DNA of 64,000 nucleotides, taken from positions 968,900-1,032,899 of the forward strand of contig CAVORL010000006.1 of NCBI GenBank assembly GCA_963698595.1, written 5' to 3'. The position numbers were made by a program, and so were the translations under genes. The stretch comes from an uncultured Chloroflexia bacterium. Its GTDB lineage: Bacteria; Chloroflexota; Limnocylindria; Limnocylindrales; CSP1-4. This document shows positions 41,615 to 63,111 of the stretch, one piece after another. The notes under the pieces were generated by a model, which saw nothing but the letters and a program-made list of their open reading frames with translations, ran no database searches and was not told the origin of the DNA. Every line of letters begins with the position of its first letter. Positions within the stretch are counted from its first letter, which is position 1.

Positions 41615-41657
41615 TTGACCGAGCGCCGCGCGAGGCGTATTCTCGATAATCGATCAT
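41615..41657 (+). promoter_or_regulatory. sigma70-like promoter TTGACC-17-TATTCT abutting an AT-rich operator (ATAATCGATCAT)
   Basis: -35 at 41615-41620 and -10 at 41638-41643. The operator 12-mer at 41646-41657 matches the palindrome ATAATCGATTAT at 11/12 and lies 76 bp upstream of the SDR gene. Confidence 0.6.
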
Positions 41658-41732: not shown

Positions 41733-42518
41733 ATGAACCAGCCTGATCTCTTCCGCCTCGACGGCCGGGTGGCCCTCGTCCCCGGCGGCGGAGGGGCCAT
41801 CGGCTCCGCAGTCGCGGCGGCCCTTGCCCAAGCGGGCGCCCGGGTCACCGTGGTCGACGTGACCGACGAGCGCGCCGAGGCCGCGGCAGCGACGATCCGG
41901 GATGCTGCTCCGGAGGTCCTGGCCCTCGGGGCGGATGCCACGAGCGAGGCCGATTGCGAGAGGATCGTCGCGGCCACCGTCGAGAGGTTCGGCCGGCTCG
42001 ACATTGTCGTCAACTGCGTCGGCGGGGGCGCGGGCAAGGTCCTCTTCGACGCCGAGGAGTACCCGCGAGACGCCTGGGACTGGATCTACGAGCTCAATGT
42101 CCGGAGCACACTCCTCGCCACGCAGGCCGCGGTCAAGGCGATGAAGGCCGGTGGGCACGGTGGGCGCGTGGTCAACATCTCGTCCGTCCGCGCGGCGCTT
42201 GGCATCAACGCTGGCTACTCGGCGTACGTGGCTGCGAAGGGCGCGATCAGCTCCCTCACCCGCCAGTGGGCCACTGAGTGGGCGAAGCACGGCATCACGG
42301 TCAACGCGATCGCCCCGACCTTCGTGGACACCCCGCAGGTGGCGATGCTCCTCGGCGACCCCGCCTTCAAAGCCGGCCTCGTCAGCCGCATCCCGCTCGG
42401 CCGCGTCGGCGGGACATCGGACCTCACCGGGGCCGTCATCTTCTTCTGCTCCGACGCCTCGTCGTTCGTCACTGGCCAGATCCTCGGGATCGACGGCGGC
42501 CTGACGGCGACGCAGTAG
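41733..42518 (+). CDS. short-chain dehydrogenase/reductase (SDR)
   Basis: Glycine-rich ALVPGGGGAIGSA, NCVG, and the catalytic YSAYVAAKGA (YxxxK). Confidence 0.88.
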   Translation: MNQPDLFRLDGRVALVPGGGGAIGSAVAAALAQAGARVTVVDVTDERAEAAAATIRDAAPEVLALGADATSEADCERIVAATVERFGRLDIVVNCVGGGAGKVLFDAEEYPRDAWDWIYELNVRSTLLATQAAVKAMKAGGHGGRVVNISSVRAALGINAGYSAYVAAKGAISSLTRQWATEWAKHGITVNAIAPTFVDTPQVAMLLGDPAFKAGLVSRIPLGRVGGTSDLTGAVIFFCSDASSFVTGQILGIDGGLTATQ

Positions 42519-45149: not shown

Positions 45150-45923
45150 TCAGGAGGGGTCCGCCGCCCCCAGGACATAACCGCCATCCACGTCGATCAC
45201 GGCGCCGGTCACGAAGCGCCCGCCGGGACCGCACAGCCAGGCGATCGCCTCGGCGACGTCGGCCGGCTCGCCGACCGTCGAGAGCGCCTGGCGACCGAAG
45301 GCGAGGCCCGTCGCGAACTTCGCGCGCTCCTCCGCCTCGGACAGGCCGCGCAGCTCCGACGGGATGATGCCCGGGCGAATGACGTTGACCCGGATCCCGT
45401 CGCGCCCGAGGTCCAGGGCGAGGGCCCGACTCATGGCCTCCACGGCGCCCTTGCTGGCCACGTAGCCGAAGCGGCCGCGCGGCGGCCGGGCAACCACGGT
45501 GGATCCCAGGTTGATCACGACCCCGCGGCTCCTCCGGAGCTCCACGAGCGCGGCCCGCGTGCAGCGAAAGACGCTCACGACGTTGGCCCGGAGCATCCCC
45601 TCGAAGTCCTCGTCCTCGAGGGTGTCGAGGGGGCCCTGGACCTCGCTTCCAGCGTTGTTCACGAGGGCGTCGAGACCCCCGAATGCCGACACGGCCGCGA
45701 GGATCATGGCCCGGGCGTCGGCCTCGAGGGTGACGTCGGCACGCTGGATGACGACCCGGCCGGGGGCACCGGCAAGGTCGTCCGCGAGGCGTTCCAGCCG
45801 GTCTTGCCGTCGCGCGACCGCCAGCACGCTGGCGCCACGCTCCACGAGGTGACGCACGGCGTGTGCCCCCAGGCCGCTCGACGCGCCGGTGATGATGATC
45901 CGGCAGCCCTCCAGCGAGGTCAC
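45150..45923 (-). CDS. short-chain dehydrogenase/reductase (SDR)
   Basis: ITGASSGLGA, NNAG and YVASKGA (YxxxK). Confidence 0.88.
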   Translation of the reverse strand: MTSLEGCRIIITGASSGLGAHAVRHLVERGASVLAVARRQDRLERLADDLAGAPGRVVIQRADVTLEADARAMILAAVSAFGGLDALVNNAGSEVQGPLDTLEDEDFEGMLRANVVSVFRCTRAALVELRRSRGVVINLGSTVVARPPRGRFGYVASKGAVEAMSRALALDLGRDGIRVNVIRPGIIPSELRGLSEAEERAKFATGLAFGRQALSTVGEPADVAEAIAWLCGPGGRFVTGAVIDVDGGYVLGAADPS

Positions 45924-45954: not shown

Positions 45955-48183
45955 TCAGGCCCGCCCGGCCGCCACCTCGTCGGCGCGGCTCCGACCGGCG
46001 AGCAGGATCAGGTCCTCGTGCAGCTCGAACCAGACGCCGTGGTAGCTGTCGACGCGCGGCGAGGCGACGTAGCGATGATCGCCCCCGGCTGCTGCCTCGG
46101 CCGCCCGGTCGAGGCGCCCCAGGTAGCCCGCGAGACGCGGCAGGCCGTCGATGAGCGGCTGCAGCCACGCGCACGCGTCTCCGTGGAGGGCGGCCAGGTC
46201 AGCGAGGACCCTCGCGTCGTAGTCCGGGTCGGTGTGGTCGTTGAAGGCCTGCGCTCCGTTGCTCTCGCGCATCTGCCAGGCCGTGACCGTCGTCTTCATC
46301 CGCTGGTCGAGGGCGATGAACCCGTCGAGGGCGGCTGCGGCACGCTCCGGGCCCCAGGCCAGACGGTCCTCGGCGATCCTCGCGGCGCCAGCCGCCTTGC
46401 CGTCAGCGGTCAGCCGGAACGCGCTCGCGGCGACTTCCGCCATGCCGTCCGCCACGAGGCGGTCCAGCAGCGCGCTCGCATCTTCGGCCGTCGTCAGGAG
46501 CGCCGCCGCCGCGGCTTCGGGCGTCGAGTAGCCCTTCACCGCGAGCGCCCGGAGCATGCTCTCGGTCGTGGCCGTCGTGGCGACTTCGGTTGCCGTGGCG
46601 ACTTCGGTTGCCGTGGCGACCCCGGTTGCCGTGGCGACCCCGGTTGCCGTGGCGACCCCGGTTGCCGTGGCGACCCCGGTTGGTGTGGCGGCGGCCGATG
46701 TCGCTGCGGGCGTCGCAGGGGCGCCGATCTCGATCCCCAGCTCGCGCGCCCAGTCAAGGAGCGTGGCGGCTTCTGGAACGATGGTCGCCGCGCCGACGAC
46801 CGCGCCGGCAAAGATCTCGCCGGTCGCCCCGTCGATCGTGATCGTGTCGCCAACGGCGAACGTCCGGCCGCCGATGACGACCACGCCGTCCGTGACGCGC
46901 ACCGACGCCGCCCCGACGACTGCGGGGATCCCCCAGCCGCGCGCCACAACGGCCGCATGACTCGCCAGGCCGCCGGTGGAGGTCAGGATCCCGACTGCGC
47001 TCGCCATACCGTGGACGTCATCGGGCGACGTCTCGGCCCGAACGAGGATGACCGCACGCCCGGATGCCGTGGCGGAGACGGCTGCGTCGGGCGTCGTGAC
47101 GATCTCACCCGACGCCACGCCGGGGGACGCGGGCAGCCCCGTGGCAACGGTCGGGCCGACGTCTCCACGGTTTACCACCGTCGTCGGCGGGTCTGCCAGC
47201 AGGCCGGCCACGCGTCGCACGGCCTCCTCGCGCGAGAGAGGGAACTCAGGGTCCTCAGCCATGTCGACGGCGATCCGCAGCGCCGCCTGCGGGCTTCGCT
47301 TCCCCACCCGGCACTGGAGCATCCAGAGCCGGCCATGCTCGATCGTGAACTCGATGTCGCAGAGATCGGCGTGGTGGCGCTCCAGGCGCGCGGCATACTC
47401 GCGGAGCTGGCGCCCCACGGCCGGAATCCTCTCGTCCAGAGCGCCGATCGGTTCGGTCTGGTGGGTGCCGGCGACGACATCCTCGCCCTGGGCGTTGAAG
47501 ATCACATCGCCGTAGACGACCGGATCGCCGGTGGCCGGGTTCCGGGTGAACAGGACCCCGGACCCCGACTCAACGCTCCGGTTGCCGAAGACCATGGCCT
47601 GGACGGTGACCGCCGTCCCCAGGTCGCGTGGAATCCCTTCACGTTCGCGATATGCCCGTGCCCGGTCGCTGTTCCACGAGCGGAAGACCGCCTCGACTGC
47701 GGCGCGCAGCTGGTCCCATGGGTTCACGGGAATGCTGTCGCCGCCGACGATGTCGCGAAACGCCGCCTCGAAGCGCAGTTGACAGTTCGCGGCGAACTTC
47801 GGGCTGCCCGACGACGCTGCGAGACCGGCCGTCGTGGCGTCATTGATGCCGAGATTGAGGATCGTGTCCATCATCCCGGGCATCGACACCGGCGCTCCGG
47901 ATCGGACGCTCACGAGAAGTGGGTTGTCCGCGTCCCCGAAGCCGTGGCCAACGAGCTCCTCGATGCGTGCCATGTGCTCGCGGAGCTCCCCGTCGAGCGC
48001 GGCCGGCCATCCTCGAGCGAGATACTCGCTGCAGGCTGCGGTCGAGATCGTGAAGGCGGGCGGCACCGGGAGGCCGAGGTCGAGCGCCATCACGGCGAGG
48101 TTCGCGGCCTTGCCCCCCAGCAGCCGCTTGACCTCCGGCTGGGGAAGGTCGAGGCGCTGGTCGCAGTCGTAGACGTAGGTCAC
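45955..48183 (-). CDS. pyruvate-phosphate-dikinase-like protein lacking the C-terminal TIM barrel; carries a repeat linker and an unknown C-terminal domain
   Basis: The N-terminus GGKAANLAVM...GLPVPPAFTIST is a PPDK_N ATP-grasp. The central swivel domain is TSTGGLASHAAVVARGWGIPAVVG. After ITIDGATGEIFAG comes (TGVATA)n and then about 250 aa with no PEP/pyruvate-binding motifs. Confidence 0.8.
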   Translation of the reverse strand: MTYVYDCDQRLDLPQPEVKRLLGGKAANLAVMALDLGLPVPPAFTISTAACSEYLARGWPAALDGELREHMARIEELVGHGFGDADNPLLVSVRSGAPVSMPGMMDTILNLGINDATTAGLAASSGSPKFAANCQLRFEAAFRDIVGGDSIPVNPWDQLRAAVEAVFRSWNSDRARAYREREGIPRDLGTAVTVQAMVFGNRSVESGSGVLFTRNPATGDPVVYGDVIFNAQGEDVVAGTHQTEPIGALDERIPAVGRQLREYAARLERHHADLCDIEFTIEHGRLWMLQCRVGKRSPQAALRIAVDMAEDPEFPLSREEAVRRVAGLLADPPTTVVNRGDVGPTVATGLPASPGVASGEIVTTPDAAVSATASGRAVILVRAETSPDDVHGMASAVGILTSTGGLASHAAVVARGWGIPAVVGAASVRVTDGVVVIGGRTFAVGDTITIDGATGEIFAGAVVGAATIVPEAATLLDWARELGIEIGAPATPAATSAAATPTGVATATGVATATGVATATGVATATEVATATEVATTATTESMLRALAVKGYSTPEAAAAALLTTAEDASALLDRLVADGMAEVAASAFRLTADGKAAGAARIAEDRLAWGPERAAAALDGFIALDQRMKTTVTAWQMRESNGAQAFNDHTDPDYDARVLADLAALHGDACAWLQPLIDGLPRLAGYLGRLDRAAEAAAGGDHRYVASPRVDSYHGVWFELHEDLILLAGRSRADEVAAGRA
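46571..46696. repeat. 18-bp in-frame tandem repeat (about 7 units) inside the PPDK-like gene
   Basis: The unit GTTGCCGTGGCGACCCCG occurs four times perfectly (46607-46678). Two units carry ...CTTCG and degenerate copies flank them. It encodes TGVATA/TEVATA hexapeptides on the minus strand. Confidence 0.95.
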
Positions 48184-48242: not shown

Positions 48243-49289
48243 TCAGGGCGCGACGATGATCTTGATGGCCCCGCTCGCGGGGTCGTTGAAGGTGGCGAGA
48301 GCCTGCCCGAACTCGGACAGGCTGAAGTGGTGCGTCGTGACGTCACGAACCCGCATCCTGCCTTGCTCCACGAGCGGCATGACGCGCCGCATCTCGCCCG
48401 CGGAGGCCCGCGAGCCGACGAGCTCCAGCTCGTCGAGGACGAGGCGCTGCATCGCGATCTCGACACCGACCGTGGGAATCCCGACGGCGGCACACCGACC
48501 GCCGCGGCGGAGCATGCCCAGCGCCTGCTGGACGGTCTCCGGGACGCCGGCGCACTCGAGGACGACGTCGACCCCGAAGCCGCCGGTCATCTCGCGAACC
48601 GCCGCGACGGGGTCGCCCACCGTCGCGTCGACGGTCTCGAAACCCATCGCCGCCGCCTTGGCGAGGCGCTTCGCGTTGCGCTCGATGAGGATCACCCGGG
48701 CGGCTCCACGGATCAGCGCGGCGTCGCCGCCGAGGAGGCCGATGGCGCCGGCGCCCGTGATCGCGACGGCATCGCCGGGGGCGATGTTGCCGCGGTTGGC
48801 GACGTGGAGGGCGATGGAGGCCGGGTCGATGACCGCCCCGTCGTCGAACGACAGCGCGTCCGGGAGCGGGAAGATCGTCTTGACGCCCTGCACCACGTAG
48901 GTCGCGTCGGCGCCCTGGACGCTGTGGCCGTATTGCTTGTGGAGCCCCTCGCGGCCGTAGTTCTCGCACAGGTTGTAACGGCCCTCGACGCACTTCTGGC
49001 AGACGCCGCACGCGTCGTGCGACGTGCCGGCGACGCGGTCTCCGACCCGCCATCCGTAGCGCTCGGCACCCGGACCGAGCTCCACGATCTCGCCGGCCCA
49101 CTCGTGGCCCGGGATGAACGGGAAGGCCGGGGGCCAGAAGCCCGGGTAGTCGCCCCGCACGATGTGGGCGTCCGTGCCGCAGATGGAGACCGCCCGCACG
49201 CGCGCCAGGACCTCACCCGGTCCGGGTACCGGCACCGGGACTTCCTGGATCTCGAAACGGCTCGGCTCGAGGACGACGAGCGCCTCCAT
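48243..49289 (-). CDS. zinc-dependent medium-chain alcohol/polyol dehydrogenase (paralog B)
   Basis: From ATG 49289 (MEALVVLEP). It has the same motif set as paralog A (SICGTDAH, GHEWAGEI, CGVCQKCVEGRYNLC). It lies in inverted orientation relative to 43552..44607. Confidence 0.9.
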   Translation of the reverse strand: MEALVVLEPSRFEIQEVPVPVPGPGEVLARVRAVSICGTDAHIVRGDYPGFWPPAFPFIPGHEWAGEIVELGPGAERYGWRVGDRVAGTSHDACGVCQKCVEGRYNLCENYGREGLHKQYGHSVQGADATYVVQGVKTIFPLPDALSFDDGAVIDPASIALHVANRGNIAPGDAVAITGAGAIGLLGGDAALIRGAARVILIERNAKRLAKAAAMGFETVDATVGDPVAAVREMTGGFGVDVVLECAGVPETVQQALGMLRRGGRCAAVGIPTVGVEIAMQRLVLDELELVGSRASAGEMRRVMPLVEQGRMRVRDVTTHHFSLSEFGQALATFNDPASGAIKIIVAP

Positions 49290-49312
49290 GGTTGCGGGCA
49301 CGGGAACCTCCT

Positions 49313-50203
49313 TCAGATGACGGCGACCGGGTCGACCATCGACCCGGTCGCGCCACGGATCTTGAGTGGCAGGGCAACGAACAGGAACTCGTAGATCCGC
49401 TCGCGAGCGAGCGCCTCGAGATCCAGGCTTTCCATGATGTAGATCCCGTTCTGGATCAGCAGGAGCGTGTGGACCGGCTGCGGGTTGCCGGTGGGTCCGG
49501 GGTCCGGGGCGGGCTGGACCTCGTACGTCTCCGTGTCCGTGCCGGTCGCGACCACGCCCCGCCCAAGGAGCCAGCGCGCGGCGGAGATGTCGGGTCCTGG
49601 CGTCTTGTGGGCGGCCATCGCCTCGGCGTCGGGCCACAGGCTCATGTATCCGGTTCGGATCGCGACGACGTCACCGGCGCGGACGTCGACACGCTGCGCC
49701 ACGCAGATCGCCTCGAGCTCCGCGGCGTCGATCGGCGAGCCCTTCGGGAGGCAGGGGACCTGCCGGTGGCCCGCGGCGTCGAGGAGGACACCGCGGGTGA
49801 AGAACGGCGGCAGCATGGCCGCATCGAGGTGCGTCGGGCCGAAGTCCGTGAGGTGCTCGTCGGCGTTCCCGCCTCCGTACCAGTGCATGTCGTCGCCCAC
49901 CGTCATGTGGGCCAGCGCGTCGATGTGGGCGCCGGAGTGCGACGTCGCCATGACGTACTCGGCCATGTAGCCGAGCCCAGCGTCGTTCACGGGTCCCCAG
50001 GGCTGGGCGCCGGTGACACGGATCCCTCGCGGGGTCCGGTAGTTGAGGACCTGAAACGGCGGGTGGCCGGGAAAGAGCGGCATCCCCGGGTAGCGGACGG
50101 CCGCCATGGGGATCATCCGCCCCTGGCGGACGAGCCCGGCCGCGCGAACCACCTCGTCGGGTGTCTGCTTGCCGATGGGTCCGATGTCAGATGGCGTGGT
50201 CAT
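49313..50203 (-). CDS. cyclase-family protein (arylformamidase/KynB-like fold)
   Basis: SHSGAHIDALAH fits the HxGTHxDxPxH metal-binding motif of the putative cyclase family. Confidence 0.75.
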   Translation of the reverse strand: MTTPSDIGPIGKQTPDEVVRAAGLVRQGRMIPMAAVRYPGMPLFPGHPPFQVLNYRTPRGIRVTGAQPWGPVNDAGLGYMAEYVMATSHSGAHIDALAHMTVGDDMHWYGGGNADEHLTDFGPTHLDAAMLPPFFTRGVLLDAAGHRQVPCLPKGSPIDAAELEAICVAQRVDVRAGDVVAIRTGYMSLWPDAEAMAAHKTPGPDISAARWLLGRGVVATGTDTETYEVQPAPDPGPTGNPQPVHTLLLIQNGIYIMESLDLEALARERIYEFLFVALPLKIRGATGSMVDPVAVI

Positions 50204-52958: not shown

Positions 52959-53822
52959 TCACTCTCCCGTCGCCAGCCGCTGGATCGCCGTGCGCAGGGC
53001 GCGAACCCCGAGCACGCGGAGCATCGCCAGGCGGTATTCGGGGCTCGCGCGCATGGAGCGCGGCGACGGGCTGGCGGCTGCGAGCATCCGCTCGAGGATC
53101 GGCGCCTTCGCGGAGTCGGGCGCATCCGGGTCGGCCAGCACGCCGCTCTCGTCGACGGCGAGGACAGGCCGCGGCCCAACGCTGCCGTAGGCGAGCCGGG
53201 TGACACCTGCCGTGTCCACGCCGCAGCACAGCGTCACCGAGGCGAGGTCGTGGCCGCGCCGGCGGGTGCGTCGCACGTGGACGGCACCCATGGGACGCCC
53301 GGGCACCGGGAGCTCGATCGCTGTGACGAGCTCCCCTGCCGCCAGCGTGGTCTGACCCGAACGGACGAAGAAGTCCGCAACCGGGATCCGCCGGGTGCCC
53401 ACCGGCCCGACGGCGACCACCTCCGCGCCATAGACGAGCAGCGAGGGCGCGGCGTCGGCGGCGGGGGACGCATTGCACACATTCCCGGCGAGGGTCGCCC
53501 GGTTGCGGATCTGCACGGACCCCACCACGGCGGCCGCCTCGGCCAGCGCCACGAAATGCCGGTGCACGACCGGGTCGGCCGCGATGTCGGTCATCACGGT
53601 CGTGGCGCTGATCACGAGCCGCCCGTCCTCCTCGCGGATCGCGGGCTGCAGCTCCGCGATCCGCTTGAGGTCGACGACAAGCTCCGGCTTCAGCGTCCCG
53701 TCGCGGAGGCGGATGACGAGGTCGGTGCCCCCCGCCAGGACGCGGGCCGCTGCGCCGTGCTCGTGGAGCATGGCGACCGCCTCCGCAAGGGAGGTCGGGC
53801 GGGCGTAGGCAAACGGGTGCAT
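52959..53822 (-). CDS. FAD-binding medium subunit (CoxM-like)
   Basis: LAGGTDL and the ATLAGNVCNASPAAD FAD-binding blocks. Confidence 0.88.
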   Translation of the reverse strand: MHPFAYARPTSLAEAVAMLHEHGAAARVLAGGTDLVIRLRDGTLKPELVVDLKRIAELQPAIREEDGRLVISATTVMTDIAADPVVHRHFVALAEAAAVVGSVQIRNRATLAGNVCNASPAADAAPSLLVYGAEVVAVGPVGTRRIPVADFFVRSGQTTLAAGELVTAIELPVPGRPMGAVHVRRTRRRGHDLASVTLCCGVDTAGVTRLAYGSVGPRPVLAVDESGVLADPDAPDSAKAPILERMLAAASPSPRSMRASPEYRLAMLRVLGVRALRTAIQRLATGE

Positions 53823-53839: not shown

Positions 53840-54727
53840 CTACAGGATCCGCTCGACCTCGTCCAGGAGGACCTGGGGGGTCGCAGCCCGGATGAAGTAG
53901 AAGGGCCGCTCGCAGAAACGGGCCACGAAGTCCGCGCGCCGCCGCCGCAGCTCGTCGTTGTCGACCATTGGCATGACGTGCCCGGGGGCGAGCAGCTCGT
54001 TCGTCAGGAAGTAGTTCTGCAGCGAGTGCAGGAACTGGAACTGCCGCTCGAACGGGATCAGCTCGTTGGTCGCAGGATCGAAGTTGCCGTCGATGGCCGG
54101 GACGATGACGAGGTCGATGTTCGGCTCGCCGTCGAACATCCCCCAGCTGGGCATCTCACCCCAGAACTTCTCGACCCCCCGGTTCGGGGCGGCCTTGTCG
54201 GACCGCTCCGTGCCCTCGGTCCGCTTGCGGAGGAAGGTGTCCACCGAGCCCATGACGGCCCGGCCGCTCTCGTCGATGACTGTCGTCTCCGAGGCCACCT
54301 GAAGGGCGCCCCGGACCCCGGCTTCGATGAGGCCCATCGACTTGCCGTGGTTCGACTCGCCGCCGAGGAAGACCAGCGTCTTCCCCCGGTAGTTGACCGC
54401 CGCGCTGTGAGACGGGTGGAGCCCGACGGCTTCCATGCGCAGCGCGAGGATGGCGACGATGACCTTCTGGATGGGACCTGCCGGCCACGGGCCGGTGAAG
54501 GTGACGACGCGCCCGTCGTAAGTGACCTCCTTCGCTCCATCTCGGTGCCAGACGATGTCGGGCGTCTCCAGCGTGATCTCCGGGGAGATGCGCACGTCGG
54601 CGAGGCGGTAGTTGAGGAAGGTCAGATCGTCGAGAACGTGCTCGCGCGGCTCGCCGCCGTGCACGTCCACTCGGAGGCGGGCCGTCCCGGCCGACATCTC
54701 TTCCGAAAGCTGGAGCTGGTCGTTCAT
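53840..54727 (-). CDS. hypothetical protein with an HPr-kinase-C-like P-loop
   Basis: From ATG 54727. LVFLGGESNHGKSMGLIEAGVRGALQVASETTVI (nt 54338-54364 for the P-loop) parallels the HprK motif G-x-S-G-x-GKS...L-[VI]-[AS]-D-D. Confidence 0.6.
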   Translation of the reverse strand: MNDQLQLSEEMSAGTARLRVDVHGGEPREHVLDDLTFLNYRLADVRISPEITLETPDIVWHRDGAKEVTYDGRVVTFTGPWPAGPIQKVIVAILALRMEAVGLHPSHSAAVNYRGKTLVFLGGESNHGKSMGLIEAGVRGALQVASETTVIDESGRAVMGSVDTFLRKRTEGTERSDKAAPNRGVEKFWGEMPSWGMFDGEPNIDLVIVPAIDGNFDPATNELIPFERQFQFLHSLQNYFLTNELLAPGHVMPMVDNDELRRRRADFVARFCERPFYFIRAATPQVLLDEVERIL

Positions 54728-55527: not shown

Positions 55528-57297
55528 CTAGCTTCCGATGATCGCGGGCGCGGGCGCGGTGCTCTCAAGGATCTCCACCACGCCGGCGTTGCCGTCGACG
55601 CGGATCCGATCCCCGGTCTTGATGGTCCACGTGCCGATCGAGGTGCCCACGACCGCCGGGATGCCGTACTCGCGCGCCAGGACGGCCGGGTGCGAGACGG
55701 TGCCGCCGGCGTCGGTCACCACGGCGATGATCTTGCCGTACAGGACCTGCCAGGCCGGGTTGGTCATCTGGCAGACGAGGATCTCGCCTTCCTGAAGGCT
55801 GTCGAACTCAGCCTCGGACGAGACGACGCGGGCGATGCCCTCGACGACGCCCGGCGAGCCGGCGATGCCCGGGACCTTGCCCTCCTCGTGATCGACCGAG
55901 CGGTAGAACTTGTCGGGGAATCCCCACAGGTTCAGGTACGGGAAGGCGAGCTGCGTCGCGGTACAGGTACCCACCCAGTCTTTGGGCTGGTACGCCTCCG
56001 CCTCGGCCCGCTTTGCCCGCGCCGCGGCTGCGATCGCACGCCCGTCCATGCCGGTCGGGTTGCCGACGAAGGCGCGCAGGTCGTTGTAGCGGAACATGAT
56101 GACGTCGTCCGGGGCGTCGAGGACGCCCATCTCCACGAGCTTCTCGCCGAGGGCGATCAGCACGAGGCGGACGTGGGCGTTGGCGCCCTGGTCGATGTAG
56201 AAGTGGTGGTCCGGCGTCAGCGGGGCCATCTTGAGGTTGATCTCGTTGGCGGCGCGCATCTCCTCGAGCGCCTCGCCCTGCAACCCCTCGAGGATCTGCT
56301 TCGCGGCGGCATCGATGTCGGCCTTGAGCGCCGCAACCTTCGACTGGTAGTCGTAGTCCGACGCGTACTGGTCGCGGACGAGCTGGATGATCGGGTTCAT
56401 GTCCTCCCGGAACGACGGGAAGATGAACTCGTGGCTCCAGACCGCGTGCCAGCCGAACTCCTTCTGGTAGGGCACGACCCGCTCGTCGATGAAGCGCCGG
56501 CCGCGCGCGGTCGCCTGGAGGGCGGGCAGGATCACCGCGGATGTGGTGCCGCCGAATGCCGTGGCCAGCTCGGCGTCGACCTTGATCTCCTCCTTCATCT
56601 CCCAGAGCGCACGGATCTTGTCCCAGTTCCGGTCGCTGGCCGAGTTCTGCAGCCGCCCGAGCAGGACCTCGTCGACCTTGCCATGGGTCTTCTCCATGAC
56701 GGCCCGGAGGTTGAGCGTGGCGCTGAGCTGCGCGAAGTTCAGCATCCAGTGGATCTTCCAGTGGCGGTCGTGCATGTCGATGGCGTCTTCGAGGAGGACG
56801 GCCACCTCGGCAAGGCTCAGCTGGTCCTTCTGGTCGAGCATCCCCTCGATGTAGTCGAAGTTCCGCTGCATCTCGGGCACGAACCTGGTGCGCCACCACT
56901 CGACGAACTTATGGCCGTAGACCGGCAGGACGGCGCCGAGGTAGGCCCCGATCTTGCCGGCATACTCCGGGTCCTCGGGCACGATCGGGTTCGTGCGGTA
57001 GTTGTACTCCTGGGTCTCGACGGTCAGGCCGGCCTCGGCGGGGATCGCGGCCGTGTACAGCCAGCCGTTGATGTTCTTGTAGATCCAGTCCGTCGCGAAG
57101 GGAGTGCCGAAGCGGCGGAACATGTGGTCGCAGGAGAGCCACCAGCCGCCGATGTCCTCGTACATCGGGCTGAGCGGCTTGGGGCAGTGCAGGTCGTCGT
57201 AGACCCAGAAGAGCAGCTTCTCGGTTTCGGACGCCCACTCGATCGGGAACGTCTCGTCACCGTGGAACTCGCCGAGGACTTCTTCCTTGAGGGGCAC
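55528..57297 (-). CDS. PEP-utilising-enzyme mobile-domain protein (phenylphosphate synthase alpha/PpsA-like architecture)
   Basis: The C-terminal swivel domain is LVCQMTNPAW...TDAGGTVSHPAVLAREYGIPAVVG. From memory, the N-terminal block LLFWVYDDLHCPKPLSP resembles the substrate-binding part of PpsA-like phosphotransferases. No ATP-grasp domain is present. Confidence 0.7.
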   Translation of the reverse strand: MPLKEEVLGEFHGDETFPIEWASETEKLLFWVYDDLHCPKPLSPMYEDIGGWWLSCDHMFRRFGTPFATDWIYKNINGWLYTAAIPAEAGLTVETQEYNYRTNPIVPEDPEYAGKIGAYLGAVLPVYGHKFVEWWRTRFVPEMQRNFDYIEGMLDQKDQLSLAEVAVLLEDAIDMHDRHWKIHWMLNFAQLSATLNLRAVMEKTHGKVDEVLLGRLQNSASDRNWDKIRALWEMKEEIKVDAELATAFGGTTSAVILPALQATARGRRFIDERVVPYQKEFGWHAVWSHEFIFPSFREDMNPIIQLVRDQYASDYDYQSKVAALKADIDAAAKQILEGLQGEALEEMRAANEINLKMAPLTPDHHFYIDQGANAHVRLVLIALGEKLVEMGVLDAPDDVIMFRYNDLRAFVGNPTGMDGRAIAAAARAKRAEAEAYQPKDWVGTCTATQLAFPYLNLWGFPDKFYRSVDHEEGKVPGIAGSPGVVEGIARVVSSEAEFDSLQEGEILVCQMTNPAWQVLYGKIIAVVTDAGGTVSHPAVLAREYGIPAVVGTSIGTWTIKTGDRIRVDGNAGVVEILESTAPAPAIIGS

Positions 57298-57345
57298 CGG
57301 TGCTTCCTCCTGTACCTGCCTGGTGTCGCCCGTGGCGACCTGGTC

Positions 57346-58182
57346 TCAGATGGCAGAGGTCGTGCGCGTGATTGCCTTGAAGCGCCGCATGTTCTCCGTG
57401 ATCGCCACCTCCGTCGGGAGCCGCTCCATGCTGGACGCGCCGAAGAAGCCGGCCACGCCTGTCGTGTGTTCGAGGATGTACTGGGCGTCCTCCGGCTCGG
57501 CGATGGGGCCGCCGTGGCAGAGGACGATGGCGTCGGGGTTGACCGCCGCGGCAGCGTCCCGGATCGCCTGGACGAGCTCGGCCGCCTGCACCATGGTGAC
57601 CGCCGTCGTGGCGCCGATGACACCCTTCGTCGTCAGCCCGATGTGGGCCACCACGACGTCGGCCCCTGCCGCGGCCATGTCGCGCGCCTGGTCGGGGTCG
57701 AAGACGTACGGAGTTGTCACGAGACCCGCTTCATGGGCTGCCCGGATCATGTCCACCTCGAGGCTGAAGCCCATGCCGGTCTCCTCGAGGTTCTGCCGGA
57801 ACCGGCCATCGATCAATCCCACGGTCGGGAAGTTCTGGACTCCGGAGAAGCCAACCCGTCGGACCTCCTCGAGGAAGACCGGCATGAGCCGGAACGGGTC
57901 GGTGCCGCAGACGCCCGCCATCACCGGTGTCACCTTCACGACGGGGAGGACCTCACCGGCCATCTCCATCACGATCGCGTTGGCGTCACCGTAGGGCATG
58001 CAGCCGGCCAACGAGCCACGGCCTGCCATGCGGTAGCGTCCCGAGTTGTAGATGATGATGAGGTCGGCGCCGCCCGCCTCCGCGCACTTGGCCGAGAGCC
58101 CAGTCCCGGCCCCGGAGCCCATGATCACGCCGCCCCCATCGAGCGTCCTGCGGAGGCGTGTCAGCACATCGTCCCTGTTCAT
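57346..58182 (-). CDS. PEP-hydrolase-like TIM-barrel protein (Tm-1 C-terminal-domain family)
   Basis: From ATG 58182. [47 protein letters not shown] is the hallmark N-terminal block of this family. The start overlaps the upstream stop (ATGA). Confidence 0.8.
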
Positions 58183-59429
58183 GCGCGCCCTCCTGCGTTC
58201 GCCGTCTGCCCCGTGGCCCACGCACGGTAATGCGCGTCGAGCCGCTCGGCCATCGCCGTCGCGAAGTCCGGGTCGTTGATGTCGGTTGCCATCACGACGA
58301 CCTCGACATCCGGCCGAAGCCCGGACCGCAGCTCCCGGATGAGGGCTGCATCGGCGGCCGGGTCGTGGAACGGGGCGCCGGGGACGTCAATCATCGAGAC
58401 CCCGCCGAGCGGGATGAAGACGCTCAGGGGTCCCGTCGCCTGGTTCAGCTTGCGGGCCATGATCCGCCCCAGCTCGGCGCACTCCTCCTCCGTCGTCCGC
58501 ATGAGCGTAACCGTCGCGTTGTGGACATAGAGGTTGCGGCCCCTGAACTCCGGGGGGACCGTCTCCTCGGGCCCGAAGTTGCACATGTCGAGGGCCCCGA
58601 GCGAGACGACCTGGGGGATGCCGAGGGAGCCCGCCATCTCGAGCCGTTCGGGTCCTGCGGAGAGGACCCCTCCGACCAGCTCGTCCACGAGCTCGGTGGT
58701 CGTGATGTCGAGCGACCCCGTGATGAAGCCGGCCTGCATGAGGGCTTCCATGGACCTCCCGCCGGAGCCCGTGGCGTGGAAGACGAGGACCTCGTAGCCG
58801 TGCGCTTCCAGCCACTCCCGGGCCACCGTGACGCTCGGGGTCGTCACCCCGAACATCGTGGCCCCGATGAGCGGTTTCGGCGGGATCTTCGAGACGAACG
58901 ACGCCGACGCCCTCGCCATCCCGGCGATCCCGACGGCCGCGTTGGTGAGGATCCTTTCCGAGAGGACGTTGATGCCGGCGATATCGACGACGGAGTACAT
59001 CATCGCGATATCGGAGGTACCGACGTAGGGGCGGGTGTCCCCGGAACCCATCGTCGAGACGATCATCTTGGGGACGCCGACCGGCAGGGCCTGCATCGCC
59101 GCGCAGACGATCGACGAGCCGCCCGACCCGCCCACGCCGAGGATCCCGTCGAGCTTGCCCTCCGCGTGGAGGCGCTTGACGATCTCGGTCGCGCCACGGC
59201 TCATGGCGAGGACGCCCGGCCCGCGGTCGCCGGCCGCGGCCAGGGCGGCGCGGCTCTCGCCGGCCGCCCCCGCGACCTCGTCGGCGGTGATGTCGCCCGG
59301 CGACGGGTCGCTCAGCACGCCCGCGTCGACGAGGATCACGTCACATCCGGTTTCGCGGACCCGATCGCGCAGGAACTCGTACTCGCTGCCCTTCGTGTCG
59401 AGGGTCCCGAGGAGCACGACGCTCGTCAT
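58179..59429 (-). CDS. UPF0261-family protein (Tm-1 N-terminal-domain family, nucleotide binding)
   Basis: From ATG 59429. It has [28 protein letters not shown] and MFGVTTP blocks. It is the first gene of the long minus-strand gene train. Confidence 0.8.
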
Positions 59430-59515: not shown

Positions 59516-59562
59516 ATAATCGATTACCGATAACGATAGGAACCGGCACCCGGTCCCGTCAA
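59516..59562 (-). promoter_or_regulatory. sigma70-like promoter (TTGACG-18-TATCGT, minus strand) followed by an AT-rich operator
   Basis: -35 is the complement of 59557-59562 and -10 the complement of 59533-59538. The operator 12-mer at 59516-59527 (ATAATCGATTAC, 11/12) lies 87 bp upstream of the UPF0261 gene start. Confidence 0.6.
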
Positions 59563-59736: not shown

Positions 59737-59777
59737 TTGATTGCCCCCTTGCAGAACAAGCATCGATCATCGATTAT
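59737..59777 (+). promoter_or_regulatory. -35-like TTGATT plus an AT-rich operator upstream of the transaldolase gene
   Basis: The operator 12-mer ATCATCGATTAT at 59766-59777 matches at 11/12. TTGATT lies at 59737-59742. The -10 is not convincing (AAGCAT). Confidence 0.5.
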
Positions 59778-59850: not shown

Positions 59851-60945
59851 ATGCTGACCGCTGCGCCCCATAGCCCACTCCTGCGGATGACGCAGGAAAC
59901 CCCCACCCAGTACTGGAACGATTCCTGCGCGGTCGAGGAGCTCGCCTACGCGGTCGAGCGCGGCGCGACCGGCGCGACCTCGAATCCGAGCATCGTGCTC
60001 GAGGTCATGAAGAAGGAGCGGGCCCACTGGGTACCGCGCGTCCTCGAGATGGCCGCGGCCAACCCGACATGGTCGGAGGTCGAGCTGACCTGGGCGATCA
60101 TCGAGGAGATGGCCACCCGGGGCGCTGGGATCCTGGAGCCGGTCTTCGATCGGCTCGACGGCCGGGCCGGGCGGCTCTCCGTCCAGACAAACCCCGCGAA
60201 CCACAGGGATCCGACCCGCATGGTCGAGCAGGCGGTCCGCTTCGCCGGCCTTGCGCGGAACATGCAGGTCAAGTTCCCGGCCACCGCGGCCGGGATCACG
60301 GCGATCGAGGAGGCCACGTTTCGCGGCGTCAGCATCAACGCCACCGTGAGCTTCACCGTGCCGCAGGCGCTTGCCGCCGCTGAGGCCGTCGAGCGCGGTC
60401 TCGAGAGGCGTGTGGCCGCCGGCGGCGACGTCGCATCGATGACCCCGATAGTCACCATCATGATCGGCCGGCTCGACGACTGGATGAAGGTCCTCGTCGA
60501 GCGCGACGACCTGGCGGTCCACCCGGACGCACCGAACTGGGCCGGCATCGCCGCGTTCAAGCGAGCCTACGCCATCTTCCGGGAGCGCCGATACCGGTCG
60601 CGCTTGCTTGCCGCCGCCTACCGGCACCGGCTCCACTGGACGGAGCTCGTGGGTGGGGACGTGAGCATGACGCTCCCCTACCCCTGGCAGGTCCGCTTCA
60701 ACAAGAGCGGAATCGAGCCCGTGGCTCGGATGGAGGCTCCCGTCGATCCGGCACTCATCGCGGACCTCTACGATCGCATCCCCGACTTCCGGCGAGCGTA
60801 CGAACCCGACGGCCTCATGCCCGAGGAGTTCGAGGGCTTCGGGGCCAGCTCCCGGACCCTCCGCACGTTCGTGAAGTCCTACCACGACCTCCAGGCAGCC
60901 ATCCGCGACCTGGTCCTGCCCGACCCGGACGTCCGCCTGGCCTGA
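59851..60945 (+). CDS. transaldolase-family protein
   Basis: ATG 59851 has a GAGGTG RBS. It has TQYWNDSC, GATGATSNPSI and VQTNP, with the Schiff-base Lys context MQVKFPAT. Confidence 0.85.
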   Translation: MLTAAPHSPLLRMTQETPTQYWNDSCAVEELAYAVERGATGATSNPSIVLEVMKKERAHWVPRVLEMAAANPTWSEVELTWAIIEEMATRGAGILEPVFDRLDGRAGRLSVQTNPANHRDPTRMVEQAVRFAGLARNMQVKFPATAAGITAIEEATFRGVSINATVSFTVPQALAAAEAVERGLERRVAAGGDVASMTPIVTIMIGRLDDWMKVLVERDDLAVHPDAPNWAGIAAFKRAYAIFRERRYRSRLLAAAYRHRLHWTELVGGDVSMTLPYPWQVRFNKSGIEPVARMEAPVDPALIADLYDRIPDFRRAYEPDGLMPEEFEGFGASSRTLRTFVKSYHDLQAAIRDLVLPDPDVRLA

Positions 60946-60997
60946 TCCGCCCACCAGCGAACCCGACGAGAACGCTCCCAGAGGAGGCATCCCCACG

Positions 60998-62527
60998 ATG
61001 GTCATCGAGACCCCCGCGCAGCCCGCGACGCTGCCCATCCTGTCCCACTGGATCGCCGGCCGGCCGGTCGAGGTCCTGCCCGAGCAGACCGGCCCCATCT
61101 ACAACCCGGCCACCGGGCAGGTCATCGCCCGCGTCCCGCGCGGCGGGGCCGCCGAGGTCGAGGTCGCCGTGGCGGCCGCGAAGGCTGCCTTCCCGGCCTG
61201 GCGCGACACGCCCCTCATCGCCCGCAGCGGGATCTTCTTCGCCTGGCGCGAGCTGCTCTTCCGCCACCGCGAGGAGCTGGCCGCCCTCATCACCCGCGAC
61301 CACGGGAAGACGTTCCCCGACGCCTTCGCCGAGGTCATGCGGGGCCTCGAGACCGTGGAGTTCGCGGCGGGCCTGCCGGTCCACCTCGCCGGGATGATGA
61401 CGCCGAACGTCGCCACCAACGTCGACGCCTTCACGCTGCGCGCCCCGCTCGGGGTCACCGCCGCGATCACGCCCTTCAACTTCCCGGTCATGGTCCCCAT
61501 GTGGATCGTCCCGATCGCCCTCGCCTGCGGGAACACCGTCCTCCTCAAGCCCTCCAGCCACACCCCCGGCGCCACCCAGCTCCAGGCCGAGCTGTGGACG
61601 GAGGCCGGCGGGCCCGACGGCACGTTCAACGTGGTGTACGGCGGCCGGGAGGCCGTGACCGCCATCGTCGAGCATCCCGACATCCGGGCCATCCAGTTCG
61701 TCGGCTCCACCGCCGTCGGGCGCTACGTCTACGAGGAAGGCACCCGGCGCGGCAAGCGTGTCGGCGCCTACACCAGCGCCAAGAACGCGATGGTCGTCCT
61801 GCCCGACGCCGACATGGAGCTGACCGCCGACGCCGCCGTGGCATCCGGCTTCGGCTCCGCCGGCGAGCGCTGCATGGCCCAGACCCTCGTCATCGCCGTC
61901 GGCGACACCGCCGAGCGCCTGCGCCCGCTCATGCTCGAGCGGATCGCGAAGCTCAAGATCGGGCCCGGCATGGAGCAGGGCGTCGACATGGGCCCCATCT
62001 ACACCCGCGAGCACCGCGAGTCGGTGATCCGCTGGATCGACATCGGCGAGGCCGAGGGGGCCGAGCTCGTCGTCGACGGGCGGCCCTTCGTCCACCCGGA
62101 GCAGCCCGAGGGCTACTTCCTCGGCGTGTCGCTCTTCGACCACGTCACGCCGGACATGAAGATCTACCAGGAGGAGATCTTCGGGCCGGTCCTCGGCATC
62201 GTCCACGCCACCACGTACGACGAGGCGCTCGGCCTCATCAACGGCCACCAGTACGCCAACGGGACCGCGATCTTCACGACCGACGGCGGCGCCGCCCGGC
62301 GCTTCAAGCTCGAAGTCGACGTCCCGATGATCGGGGTCAACGTGCCGATCCCGGTGCCGGCCGGGTACCTCTCCTTCGGCGGCTCGAAGGAGTCGGCCCT
62401 CGGCGACCTCGCCATGCGCGGCGAGGACGGGATCCGCTTCTTCACCCAGCAGAAGATGGTCACCGAGCGCTGGCCGGAGCCCGGCCGCCGCGGCGCCCTC
62501 TCCCTCGTCTTCCCCGGCAACAGCTGA
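60998..62527 (+). CDS. mmsA: CoA-acylating methylmalonate-semialdehyde dehydrogenase (MmsA/IolA type)
   Basis: ITPFNFP, LKPS, FVGST, GERCMA (catalytic Cys) and IGVNVPIPVPAGYLSFGGSKES, which is typical of MMSDH rather than generic ALDH. Confidence 0.85.
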   Translation: MVIETPAQPATLPILSHWIAGRPVEVLPEQTGPIYNPATGQVIARVPRGGAAEVEVAVAAAKAAFPAWRDTPLIARSGIFFAWRELLFRHREELAALITRDHGKTFPDAFAEVMRGLETVEFAAGLPVHLAGMMTPNVATNVDAFTLRAPLGVTAAITPFNFPVMVPMWIVPIALACGNTVLLKPSSHTPGATQLQAELWTEAGGPDGTFNVVYGGREAVTAIVEHPDIRAIQFVGSTAVGRYVYEEGTRRGKRVGAYTSAKNAMVVLPDADMELTADAAVASGFGSAGERCMAQTLVIAVGDTAERLRPLMLERIAKLKIGPGMEQGVDMGPIYTREHRESVIRWIDIGEAEGAELVVDGRPFVHPEQPEGYFLGVSLFDHVTPDMKIYQEEIFGPVLGIVHATTYDEALGLINGHQYANGTAIFTTDGGAARRFKLEVDVPMIGVNVPIPVPAGYLSFGGSKESALGDLAMRGEDGIRFFTQQKMVTERWPEPGRRGALSLVFPGNS

Positions 62528-62568
62528 GACCGCCTCCCGGCGGCGAGCCCGCCGGGCCACGACCACGC

Positions 62569-62600
62569 GAAGGGGCCCCTCCCGGAGGAGGGGCCCCTTC
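62569..62600 (+). terminator. intrinsic terminator hairpin after mmsA
   Basis: GAAGGGGCCCCTCC-CGGA-GGAGGGGCCCCTTC forms a perfect 14-bp stem with a 4-nt loop, followed by GATTCTGTT. Confidence 0.75.
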
Positions 62601-62653
62601 GATTCTGTTCCGGGTGGGGACGGCCCCGTCACGCGACCCACCGGCCCGCGGGG

Positions 62654-62696
62654 TTGACCGGGCATCGCACCGGGCGTAACATCGATAATCGATTAT
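62654..62696 (+). promoter_or_regulatory. sigma70-like promoter TTGACC-17-TAACAT abutting the perfect palindromic operator ATAATCGATTAT
   Basis: -35 at 62654-62659, -10 at 62677-62682 and the operator at 62685-62696 (perfect 12-bp palindrome), 47 bp upstream of the cupin gene ATG. Confidence 0.65.
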
Positions 62697-62742
62697 GCGC
62701 CGCACTCCCCCGGCGCATCATGACCCCAGGCGAGGTGCTCGG

Positions 62743-63111
62743 ATGATCAAACGGGTCGCGAGGTCCGAGGCGGAGCTCTTCCCGCTCCCGGGTCGCAGCT
62801 GGTACACGTACGTCGGGCCCCAAAACACCCCGACAGAGCGGATCTCGATGGGGGTCTCGATCTTCCCCCCGGGCTCGAAGCCGGCCGGGCACGTCCACGA
62901 CAGTCAGGAGGAGACGATCTACTGCGCGGCCGGGCGTGGACGAATCGTCACGCCGGAGGCCACCGCCGAGATCGAGCCGGGCGTGACCGTGTGGGTACCC
63001 GTCGGCACCTTCCACGCGACCGAGTCTGACGGGCCCGACCCCCTCGAGCTCGTCTGCTTCTTCTCGCCGCCGGTGGTCCCGGGCTCCTACGAGAAGAAGG
63101 CCGCTTCATGA
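62743..63111 (+). CDS. cupin-domain protein
   Basis: ATG 62743. Cupin motif 1 is GHVHDSQEETIYCAAG and motif 2 is GVTVWVPVGTFHATES. The stop overlaps the next start (ATGA). Confidence 0.8.
   Translation: MIKRVARSEAELFPLPGRSWYTYVGPQNTPTERISMGVSIFPPGSKPAGHVHDSQEETIYCAAGRGRIVTPEATAEIEPGVTVWVPVGTFHATESDGPDPLELVCFFSPPVVPGSYEKKAAS

Follow-up and report, generated by a model that had tools for sequence, protein, structure and literature searches.

A UPF0261/TIM-barrel gene pair in operons encoding a putative two-component dikinase and a molybdenum hydroxylase in Chloroflexota

Results

Organization of the operon

The window analyzed here is a stretch of 64,000 nucleotides from an uncultured Chloroflexia bacterium (GenBank assembly GCA_963698595.1, contig CAVORL010000006.1, positions 968,900 to 1,032,899), with a G+C content of about 71%. 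Codon-position GC singled out a run of minus-strand genes extending from 59429 to 45150, which forms an operon of 12 genes and about 14.3 kb in which neighboring genes either overlap or are separated by no more than 60 nt. The first three cistrons encode a UPF0261 protein, a phosphoenolpyruvate (PEP)-hydrolase-like TIM barrel and a protein with a swivel histidine, hereafter protein iii; nine more genes on the same strand lie downstream of the swivel gene, from a GntR/FCD regulator to a short-chain dehydrogenase. For the three leading genes, the G+C content at third codon positions (GC3, 0.89-0.95, with 0.95 for the swivel gene) favors the frames given here over long antisense open reading frames (ORFs).

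The ATG of the UPF0261 gene is preceded by GGAGG, and its TGA stop codon overlaps the start of the TIM-barrel gene as ATGA (58182-58179). Because of this overlap, which recurs as an identical 4-nt overlap in a related locus (L117), translational coupling of the two genes is plausible. The gene for protein iii follows after a gap of 48 nt and has GGAGGA upstream of a GTG start. An earlier interpretation made from the letters of the window alone (the sequence-only reading) had described three consecutive genes, the first two of them coupled, and had proposed that their products constitute a split phosphotransfer machine of the PEP-synthase or pyruvate phosphate dikinase (PPDK) type. The arrangement was found as described, and the Pfam, NCBIfam and PDB matches reported below agree with the three family assignments made there.

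The UPF0261 protein and the TIM barrel

Both Pfam domains of its family are present in the UPF0261 protein (PF06792, 2e-62; PF23189, 1e-92), which scores 552 bits against the NCBIfam model NF002674 (cut-off 335). Its closest solved structures are Tm-1 (7.7e-89) and MarK (PDB 9MPY, 4e-67), the N-terminal half of Tm-1 (302 bits) being nearer than MarK (230 bits). MarK (Saro_1862), the first UPF0261 protein to be assigned a catalytic role (2025; PMC12624787), phosphorylates the phenolic hydroxyl of acetovanillone and related compounds and yields ADP. It acts as a partner-free homodimer and functionally substitutes for the AcvAB/HpeHI dikinase; its crystal structure places the ATP and phenol sites ~25 Å from each other and leaves the path of transfer unresolved (PMC12624787). 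The earlier statement that the pair has no known bacterial function is in part out of date, as catalysis is now known for a stand-alone UPF0261 protein.

Residues D11-T12-K13 of the window protein correspond to the ATP-site residues D14-T15-K16 of MarK, and G194, H218 and H303 to its phenol-site residues G195, H219 and H304. The MarK-type motifs are kept in 27-31 of 33 cluster-linked UPF0261 homologues, 28 of which have G[TS]LDTK. Tm-1 also keeps equivalents of the phenol-site Gly, His and His, so these residues are a family-wide feature from which no substrate specificity can be read. The window protein has I347 in the position of MarK H348, which binds the ketone oxygen, and the substrates of MarK itself are therefore unlikely. 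Judged by these alignments, the window protein is a probable MarK-type ADP-forming kinase; it differs from MarK in its setting, as MarK is a stand-alone homodimer without a TIM-barrel partner and is encoded in an acetovanillone carboxylase operon.

The TIM barrel matches PF09370 (1.3e-129) and Mll9387 (PDB 2p10, 6e-102), and besides PF09370 only a weak NMO match was obtained from Pfam. In a profile search of the PDB, 2p10 was the sole strong match, with weak matches to FMN-dependent barrels and triose-phosphate isomerase; the search returned no PEP-utilisers_C domain and no kinship with the PEP-binding domain of PPDK or Enzyme I, so the Pfam name of the family is no evidence for PEP binding. 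A single-sequence AlphaFold2 model (predicted local distance difference test score, pLDDT, 38.9) was too poor for fold comparison, and literature searches found no functional study of a PEP-hydrolase-like TIM barrel. As the sequence-only reading had recognized, the first two genes correspond to the UPF0261 and TIM-barrel halves of Tm-1. These are fused in Tm-1, in contrast to the separate, coupled genes of a catabolic operon seen here. Tm-1 is known as a viral replicase inhibitor and not as an enzyme, and adjacent UPF0261 and TIM-barrel gene pairs are usual in bacteria (PMC5028733).

A small cupin gene adjoins the TIM-barrel gene in Haloferax volcanii pHV3 (L087) and Rhizobium leguminosarum pRL1 (L088). 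The cupin gene of the window (62695-63111) also belongs to the operator-marked regulon described below, and cupin and TIM barrel may represent a recurrent association.

The swivel protein and its PPDK-like partner

Protein iii carries a PEP-utilisers mobile domain (PF00391, residues 502-572, 1e-21) with the motif TDAGGTVSH(536)PAV, which fits T/SxxGGxxxH. The Pfam scan gave no PPDK_N or ATP-grasp match in this protein, as the sequence-only reading had asserted. The ~450 N-terminal residues had no match in the local Pfam copy, and a precomputed annotation assigns this part to PF27448 (Rph_4th). The NCBIfam models RedH, PigC, RPH-like "PEP synthase" and PRK08296 align to residues ~140-580, RedH with 5.7e-40 over residues 160-578. 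The resemblance of the N-terminal part to phenylphosphate synthase, noted by the sequence-only reading, was borne out by BLASTP, in which protein iii aligned at 25% identity (residues 23-578, E 2e-35) with PpsA of the Azoarcus sp. KH32C pps-ppc cluster and at 27% (residues 16-579, E 2e-39) with a CreH-type protein of a cre-like cluster in Rhodococcus oxybenzonivorans; an N-terminal EK..FW.YD.LH.P.PL motif is common to protein iii and the PpsA/CreH-type proteins. An AlphaFold2 model built from a shallow set of 25 aligned sequences (84-94% identity) reached a pLDDT of 57.7, and in a Foldseek search with this low-confidence model RPH (~1e-13) was the sole PDB structure matched over >450 columns. 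HpeH has likewise been reported to match RPH structurally (PMC12167813).

Because the alignment with PpsA and CreH covers the full length, we assign protein iii as the substrate-binding/swivel half of a two-component dikinase. By analogy with these enzymes, it would phosphorylate a phenolic hydroxyl via phospho-His in an ATP-dependent, AMP-forming reaction. The protein is highly conserved (>120 protein clusters at 83-94% identity) and is the most conserved protein of the cluster, with a mean pairwise distance of 0.24 versus 0.36 for the PPDK-like protein. The swivel His is kept in all full-length homologues, one subclade having AGD..AH instead of AGG..SH.

Within the 64-kb window there is a single PPDK_N-type gene. 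It belongs to the same operon, and its product is a PPDK-like protein with an ATP-grasp domain, a swivel His of its own (GGLASH), an (ATGVAT)n linker and a C-terminal domain of ~200 aa. It scores 493 bits against NF004531 (cut-off 456) and 419 bits against Clostridium PPDK over residues 17-480, and the PEP/pyruvate domain is missing. The linker is encoded by an 18-bp tandem repeat of 6.4 copies (46576-46690). The C-terminus gave nothing significant in the local Pfam copy, with a weak match to MarR-type winged-helix domains. The swivel His of this protein is kept in 54/54 orthologues; the operon thus encodes two swivel-His carriers. We regard the PPDK-like protein as the probable nucleotide-binding partner of protein iii, judging from its place in the operon and the co-occurrence described below, and its role could be regulatory as well as catalytic.

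Distribution of the pair among swivel loci

About 160 related loci were examined with flanks of up to 10 kb, namely the best 80 each from a scan of genomes (one per species; at least 591 swivel loci confirmed) and from a scan of metagenomes seeded with the swivel protein of Thermomicrobium roseum (at least 586 loci confirmed). Most of these loci are metagenome-assembled genomes (MAGs) or metagenome contigs, and the best 80 of the genome scan are nearly all Chloroflexota MAGs of the Limnocylindria type. Clade-1 loci are Chloroflexota MAGs with 66-89% identity, to which the window proteins were compared by tblastn. Given enough flank, the molybdopterin-binding (Mo) subunit was found downstream in 58/59 clade-1 loci, and Mo and PPDK-like genes together accompany the swivel gene in 50/52, consistent with the earlier suggestion that the PPDK-like protein could serve as donor. 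The leading pair is distributed differently: among the 64 clade-1 loci with at least 2.6 kb of upstream flank, neither gene was found in 36, both in 17, UPF0261 only in 10 and the TIM barrel only in one.

In the best 80 metagenome loci, the dominant soil order of genes is swivel, GntR, cyclase, PpsB-type ATP-grasp, FAD, Mo, 2Fe-2S, FAH and ABM. In the Thermomicrobium and soil clades (soil clade, 50-58% identity), a PpsB-type ATP-grasp takes the place of the PPDK-like protein. ATP-grasp and Mo genes are present in 39/47 loci, and UPF0261 and TIM barrel were both undetected in 41/51. The pair lies immediately upstream of the swivel gene in four loci (L100, L117, L128 and L131) and, as partial copies at contig edges, in two more (L130, L158). 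Altogether, UPF0261 and/or the TIM barrel occur in 38/118 informative loci, which implies a minimum of 17 gain or loss events when mapped on the tree of swivel proteins. Some close swivel relatives (85% identity) lack the pair. Obligate co-conservation of the three genes, whose absence the sequence-only reading had named as a refutation, is therefore not seen in these loci. Mirror-tree correlations with the swivel protein (UPF0261 0.54, TIM barrel 0.51, PPDK-like 0.39, Mo 0.68) were non-discriminating.

One locus (L004, ENA contig_9324, 1.56 Mb) departs from this pattern in having swivel, GntR, UPF0261 and TIM-barrel genes, with hydroxylase and ATP-grasp absent within 10 kb. Its swivel protein is 85% identical to that of the window, while the adjacent GntR, UPF0261 and TIM-barrel proteins are just 56-62% identical. 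Neighboring genes, among them those for seryl-tRNA synthetase and ETF, appear to be split into fragments, as though a long-read assembly had introduced frameshift errors.

Thermomicrobium roseum and contexts on plasmids

The cultured T. roseum DSM 5159 encodes a swivel homologue (46% identity) on its megaplasmid (NC_011961.1, ~56100-72500, TRD_RS09580-09650; L085), in a cluster with the order ABC transporter, UPF0261, TIM barrel, GntR, cyclase, ATP-grasp, hypothetical protein, FAD, FAH, ABM, swivel, Mo and 2Fe-2S. The ATP-grasp protein of this cluster (323 aa) shares 40% identity with Azoarcus PpsB and 27% with the PPDK-like protein of the window. A 205-aa T. roseum protein was considered as an HD-domain phosphohydrolase and rejected, Pfam giving just a weak DUF4202 match.

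TIM-barrel homologues (35-77% identity) were found on 234 plasmid records, mainly of rhizobia and haloarchaea, and swivel-protein matches on 16; T. roseum is the only record on both lists with known clustering. Four contexts were inspected (R. leguminosarum, Azospirillum argentinense, H. volcanii pHV3 and a Serratia plasmid) and contained no PEP-utiliser: Rhizobium and Azospirillum have the pair but no swivel protein, and Haloferax and Serratia have just the TIM barrel. An ATP-grasp gene was present in each of the six annotated plasmid clusters of the PpsA/HpeH-like type (Azoarcus, Rhodococcus, Rhizobium, Haladaptatus, Natribaculum and T. roseum), in five of them adjacent to the PpsA/HpeH-like gene. 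The Haladaptatus and Natribaculum plasmids (L173, L174) carry their PpsA/PpsB-like genes beside a Rieske ring-hydroxylating dioxygenase, an aldehyde dehydrogenase and a metallophosphoesterase, which suggests phosphorylation-initiated aromatic catabolism in archaea.

In a neighbor-joining tree with few outgroups, the TIM barrels of L004 and L038 fall outside the main cluster-associated clade, beside a Haloferax sequence. The L102 and L112 UPF0261 proteins, which lack a TIM partner, diverge strongly from the others. These sequences suggest that at least two TIM/UPF0261 lineages were recruited independently.

Promoter and operator

The sigma-70-like site upstream of the UPF0261 gene (Table 1) is the only promoter-like site between 54500 and 60000, for a mean of 0.3 in shuffled sequences. 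Close to it lies the perfect palindrome TAATCGATTA, with the core AATCGATT. The motif TAATCGAT occurs 6 times in the window versus 0.18 expected; copies of the operator motif are located at 59517-59526, 59769-59776, 62686-62695 and 41647-41654, and also precede the TAL-like gene, the cupin gene and the short-chain dehydrogenase gene at 41733. In the related loci (L001-L084), AATCGATT is usually found upstream of the first gene of the operon, which is the swivel gene in loci lacking the pair and, in most loci that have it, UPF0261. Since AATCGATT usually precedes whichever gene comes first, the pair seems to have been inserted within the same transcription and regulatory unit. TAATCGATTA is probably the operator of the GntR/FCD regulator, whose gene follows the swivel gene in most related loci, and would mark a small regulon.

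Other genes of the cluster

The features of the locus are listed in Table 1. For the Mo subunit, the nearest NCBIfam models are the 4-hydroxybenzoyl-CoA reductase alpha subunit and XdhA, both under their cut-offs. The 295-aa protein gave nothing in Pfam or NCBIfam and, when compared with the PDB, a non-significant local match (E 0.65) to the P-loop region of ATP-dependent PEP carboxykinase (PEPCK). It is found in most clade-1 loci, between the GntR and hydroxylase genes, and in L102, L112 and L158, and may be a kinase or phosphorylase of the HprK/PEPCK fold. The divergent aldolase, dehydrogenase and cupin genes are syntenic in many related loci.

Table 1 Features of the operon and its surroundings in the window (aa, amino acids).
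Feature	Coordinates	Strand	Matches and remarks
Sigma-70-like promoter, TTGACG, 18-nt spacer, TATCGT	59533..59562	-	Upstream of UPF0261; consensus match alone
Perfect palindrome TAATCGATTA (core AATCGATT), putative operator	59517..59526	.	Upstream of UPF0261 gene
UPF0261 / Tm-1 N-half-like protein, 416 aa	58179..59429	-	PF06792, PF23189, NF002674
PEP-hydrolase-like TIM barrel, Tm-1 C-half-like, 278 aa	57346..58182	-	PF09370, PDB 2p10
Protein iii, putative PpsA/CreH/HpeH-type dikinase component, 589 aa	55528..57297	-	RIF-binding-like substrate domain and swivel domain with His536
GntR/FCD transcriptional regulator, 250 aa	54765..55517	-	PF00392, PF07729
Conserved protein, 295 aa, P-loop-like motif LVFLGGESNHGKS	53840..54727	-	No Pfam or NCBIfam match
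FAD-binding subunit, xanthine-dehydrogenase-family hydroxylase	52959..53822	-	PF00941, PF03450
[2Fe-2S] subunit, 158 aa	52478..52954	-	Orthologue in L001 has PF00111 and PF01799; conserved by tblastn
Molybdopterin-binding large subunit, ~750 aa	50229..52481	-	PF01315, PF02738, PF20256
Cyclase-family metal hydrolase	49313..50203	-	PF04199; conserved in both cluster clades
Zn-dependent alcohol dehydrogenase	48243..49301	-	PF08240, PF00107
Truncated PPDK-like protein, 742 aa	45955..48183	-	PF01326, PF00391, NF004531
Short-chain dehydrogenase, last gene of the operon	45150..45923	-	PF13561, PF00106
TAL/FSA-like aldolase, CoA-acylating methylmalonate-semialdehyde dehydrogenase, cupin	59851..63111	+	Divergent genes; TIGR01722 613 bits

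Comparison with known systems

HpeHI, CreHI and PpsAB form a subfamily of two-component small-molecule dikinases, in which HpeH contains the swivel and RIF-binding-like domains and HpeI the ATP-grasp; HpeH, CreH and PpsA are ~45% identical to one another, and HpeH alone moves phosphate from 4-phosphoacetophenone to acetovanillone (PMC12167813). The window operon resembles PpsAB, CreHI, AcvAB and HpeHI in the full-length alignment, the C-terminal swivel motif and the placement of the ATP-grasp on a separate polypeptide of the same operon. It differs in that protein iii is only 25-27% identical to PpsA and CreH, that the partner is a non-adjacent 742-aa protein of the PPDK type, and that a molybdenum hydroxylase takes the place of the downstream carboxylase or P450. 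In addition, the window cluster has no obvious phosphatase of the HD, HAD or metallophosphoesterase type, unlike these systems. RPH, PigC and RedH share the architecture of substrate-binding and swivel domains but are single chains with a fused N-terminal ATP-grasp.

A molybdenum hydroxylase is combined with a dikinase in the 3hpd cluster of Ensifer adhaerens HP1 as well. According to the published description, a four-component 3-hydroxypyridine dehydrogenase of the xanthine-dehydrogenase family is encoded there, and hydroxylation in vivo needs orf9, a "pyruvate-phosphate dikinase", and orf10, a "PEP-utilising protein mobile subunit" (bioRxiv 10.1101/2020.01.08.898148). Going by this description, both clusters combine Mo, 2Fe-2S and FAD subunits with GntR, PPDK-like and PEP-utiliser genes. 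The SRPBCC subunit (HpdA3) and the maleamate-pathway genes (hpdBCDE) are described for 3hpd only, whereas the cyclase, the alcohol and short-chain dehydrogenases, the TAL-like aldolase, the methylmalonate-semialdehyde dehydrogenase and the 295-aa protein are found in the window only, and the available text on 3hpd does not mention a UPF0261/TIM pair (bioRxiv 10.1101/2020.01.08.898148). In the 20 ORFs scanned between 38931 and 63111, among which the [2Fe-2S] gene was not separately scanned, no SRPBCC, 2,5-dihydroxypyridine dioxygenase, deformylase, amidase or maleate-isomerase family was detected. With the SRPBCC subunit and the maleamate-pathway genes absent, we rejected the window cluster as an orthologue of 3hpd.

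Discussion

We favor, with moderate confidence, an operon built around a two-component dikinase and a molybdenum hydroxylase, to which UPF0261 and the TIM barrel are added as a facultative accessory module. A GntR/FCD repressor acting at TAATCGATTA operators would probably control the operon. Protein iii would bind the substrate and carry His536, and a separate ATP-grasp protein, here the PPDK-like one, would present ATP. His536 would then be charged by ATP with release of AMP, by analogy with PpsAB, CreHI, HpeHI and the orf9/orf10 products of 3hpd, and would pass its phosphoryl group to the hydroxyl of a phenolic or hydroxy-N-heteroaromatic compound. The phosphorylated compound would subsequently be hydroxylated and degraded by the remaining enzymes of the operon. 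Situated between operator and swivel gene, the facultative module would contribute UPF0261, which most likely works alone, in the manner of MarK, and phosphorylates that hydroxy-aromatic or a related one with release of ADP; the TIM barrel may act on the resulting phospho-ester.

Several observations guide this choice. Since some ATP-grasp protein, of either the PpsB or the truncated PPDK type, is nearly always present, the swivel His likely receives its phosphate by the conventional route. UPF0261 and the TIM barrel are unlikely to be an obligate donor, because they are dispensable, often lost and self-sufficient elsewhere. Their repeated recruitment under the same operator suggests that they probably share the pathway. 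An accessory kinase module of that same pathway is further indicated by their place in the regulon, their presence in several architectures and the known chemistry of the family, phenolic phosphorylation. Of the split dikinase originally proposed, the part that pairs protein iii with the PPDK-like protein is thereby upheld, while UPF0261 and the TIM barrel do not appear to be integral modules of it.

Some results weigh against the accessory-module interpretation. The PPDK-like partner is a genuine PPDK-type protein that contains a swivel His of its own and an additional C-terminal domain, unlike the ~340-375-aa PpsB, CreI and HpeI, for which reason the route of phosphotransfer could differ and the PPDK-like protein could be regulatory; its gene also lies 9 kb from that of protein iii. 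In seven genomes, all among the ten loci with UPF0261 only, the UPF0261 gene lies right against the swivel gene, an arrangement confirmed in L015 by inspecting the ORFs, and L004 has the pair with neither hydroxylase nor ATP-grasp nearby. The apparently independent recruitments suggest a link tighter than mere co-regulation. Finally, the counts of pair absence refer to flanks of up to 10 kb and not to the rest of the genome.

The machine envisaged by the sequence-only reading, in which UPF0261 (with ATP) and/or the TIM barrel (with a PEP-like donor) directly charge His536, would be compatible with the immediate adjacency of UPF0261-TIM-swivel or UPF0261-swivel genes in several architectures and with L004, where the three genes and GntR have no ATP-grasp gene close by. 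The ~25 Å between the MarK ATP and phenol sites, with their unresolved path (PMC12624787), and the outstanding conservation of the swivel protein, which would fit many docking partners, could be read in the same sense. Nevertheless, the pair is missing from about two thirds of otherwise intact operons, including those of near swivel relatives, and is widespread where swivel proteins are absent; MarK yields ADP with no partner, the charging of swivel-His enzymes is the task of ATP-grasp or PEP-utilisers_C domains, and the TIM-barrel profile lacks similarity to PEP-binding domains. A conventional nucleotide-binding donor accompanies the swivel protein in almost every locus with enough flank, and we consider direct charging very unlikely. 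Still less credible is the view that UPF0261 and the TIM barrel are functionally unrelated passengers at the 5' end of the operon. Their facultative presence, the many gains and losses and their occurrence in many unrelated contexts would fit such a view. However, at least three different architectures contain the pair, in Limnocylindria-type MAGs, Thermomicrobium and soil clades, divergent lineages were apparently recruited independently and inserted downstream of a shared operator, and the UPF0261 family consists of hydroxy-aromatic kinases, the same chemistry as that of the dikinase.

An indirect coupling is the most interesting alternative, although we think it rather unlikely. Here UPF0261/TIM and the dikinase would act on successive or alternative intermediates or draw on a shared pool of aryl phosphates; for example, UPF0261 would make an aryl phosphate at low cost, from ATP with release of ADP, and protein iii would reversibly transphosphorylate it via its His to another acceptor. 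The transfer between two aryl compounds by HpeH alone (PMC12167813) provides a precedent, and ~25% of genomes with aromatic kinases hold both MarK and AcvAB/HpeHI homologues (PMC12624787). The common operator, the apparently independent recruitment of distinct UPF0261/TIM lineages and the UPF0261-only variants abutting the swivel gene point in the same direction, whereas the dispensability of the pair in most operons and the replacement of MarK H348 by Ile, with MarK substrates unlikely, argue against it. A more specific form of coupled phosphoryl economy seems improbable to us: UPF0261/TIM would phosphorylate an aryl or enol acceptor (ATP to ADP), and His536 would take the phosphate, from this small molecule or directly where UPF0261/TIM expose it, and hand it on to the substrate of the hydroxylase. 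If true, it would amount to a new route, in which a swivel His is charged with neither an ATP-grasp nor a PEP-binding domain, and the widespread PEP-hydrolase-like TIM barrel would for the first time be given a function.

Contrary to the earlier belief that such a system was undescribed, split swivel dikinases with a molybdenum hydroxylase are known (bioRxiv 10.1101/2020.01.08.898148; HpeHI, PMC12167813). With the accessory-module interpretation, the 3-hydroxypyridine-type arrangement of "phosphorylate, then hydroxylate" would extend to a large family of soil Chloroflexota that is very conserved, and in part of this family a truncated PPDK replaces the usual PpsB-type subunit. T. roseum DSM 5159, a cultivable organism that carries the whole gene set, offers a practical experimental system. 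The UPF0261/TIM pair spans bacteria, archaea, fungi and plants, and its only assigned activity is that of the stand-alone MarK. The biochemical context that had been sought for the pair in a three-protein machine is thus provided in a weaker sense by the locus itself: having been drawn repeatedly, and apparently independently, into operons for a hydroxy-aromatic dikinase and a molybdenum hydroxylase, the pair would have its place in aryl-phosphate chemistry.

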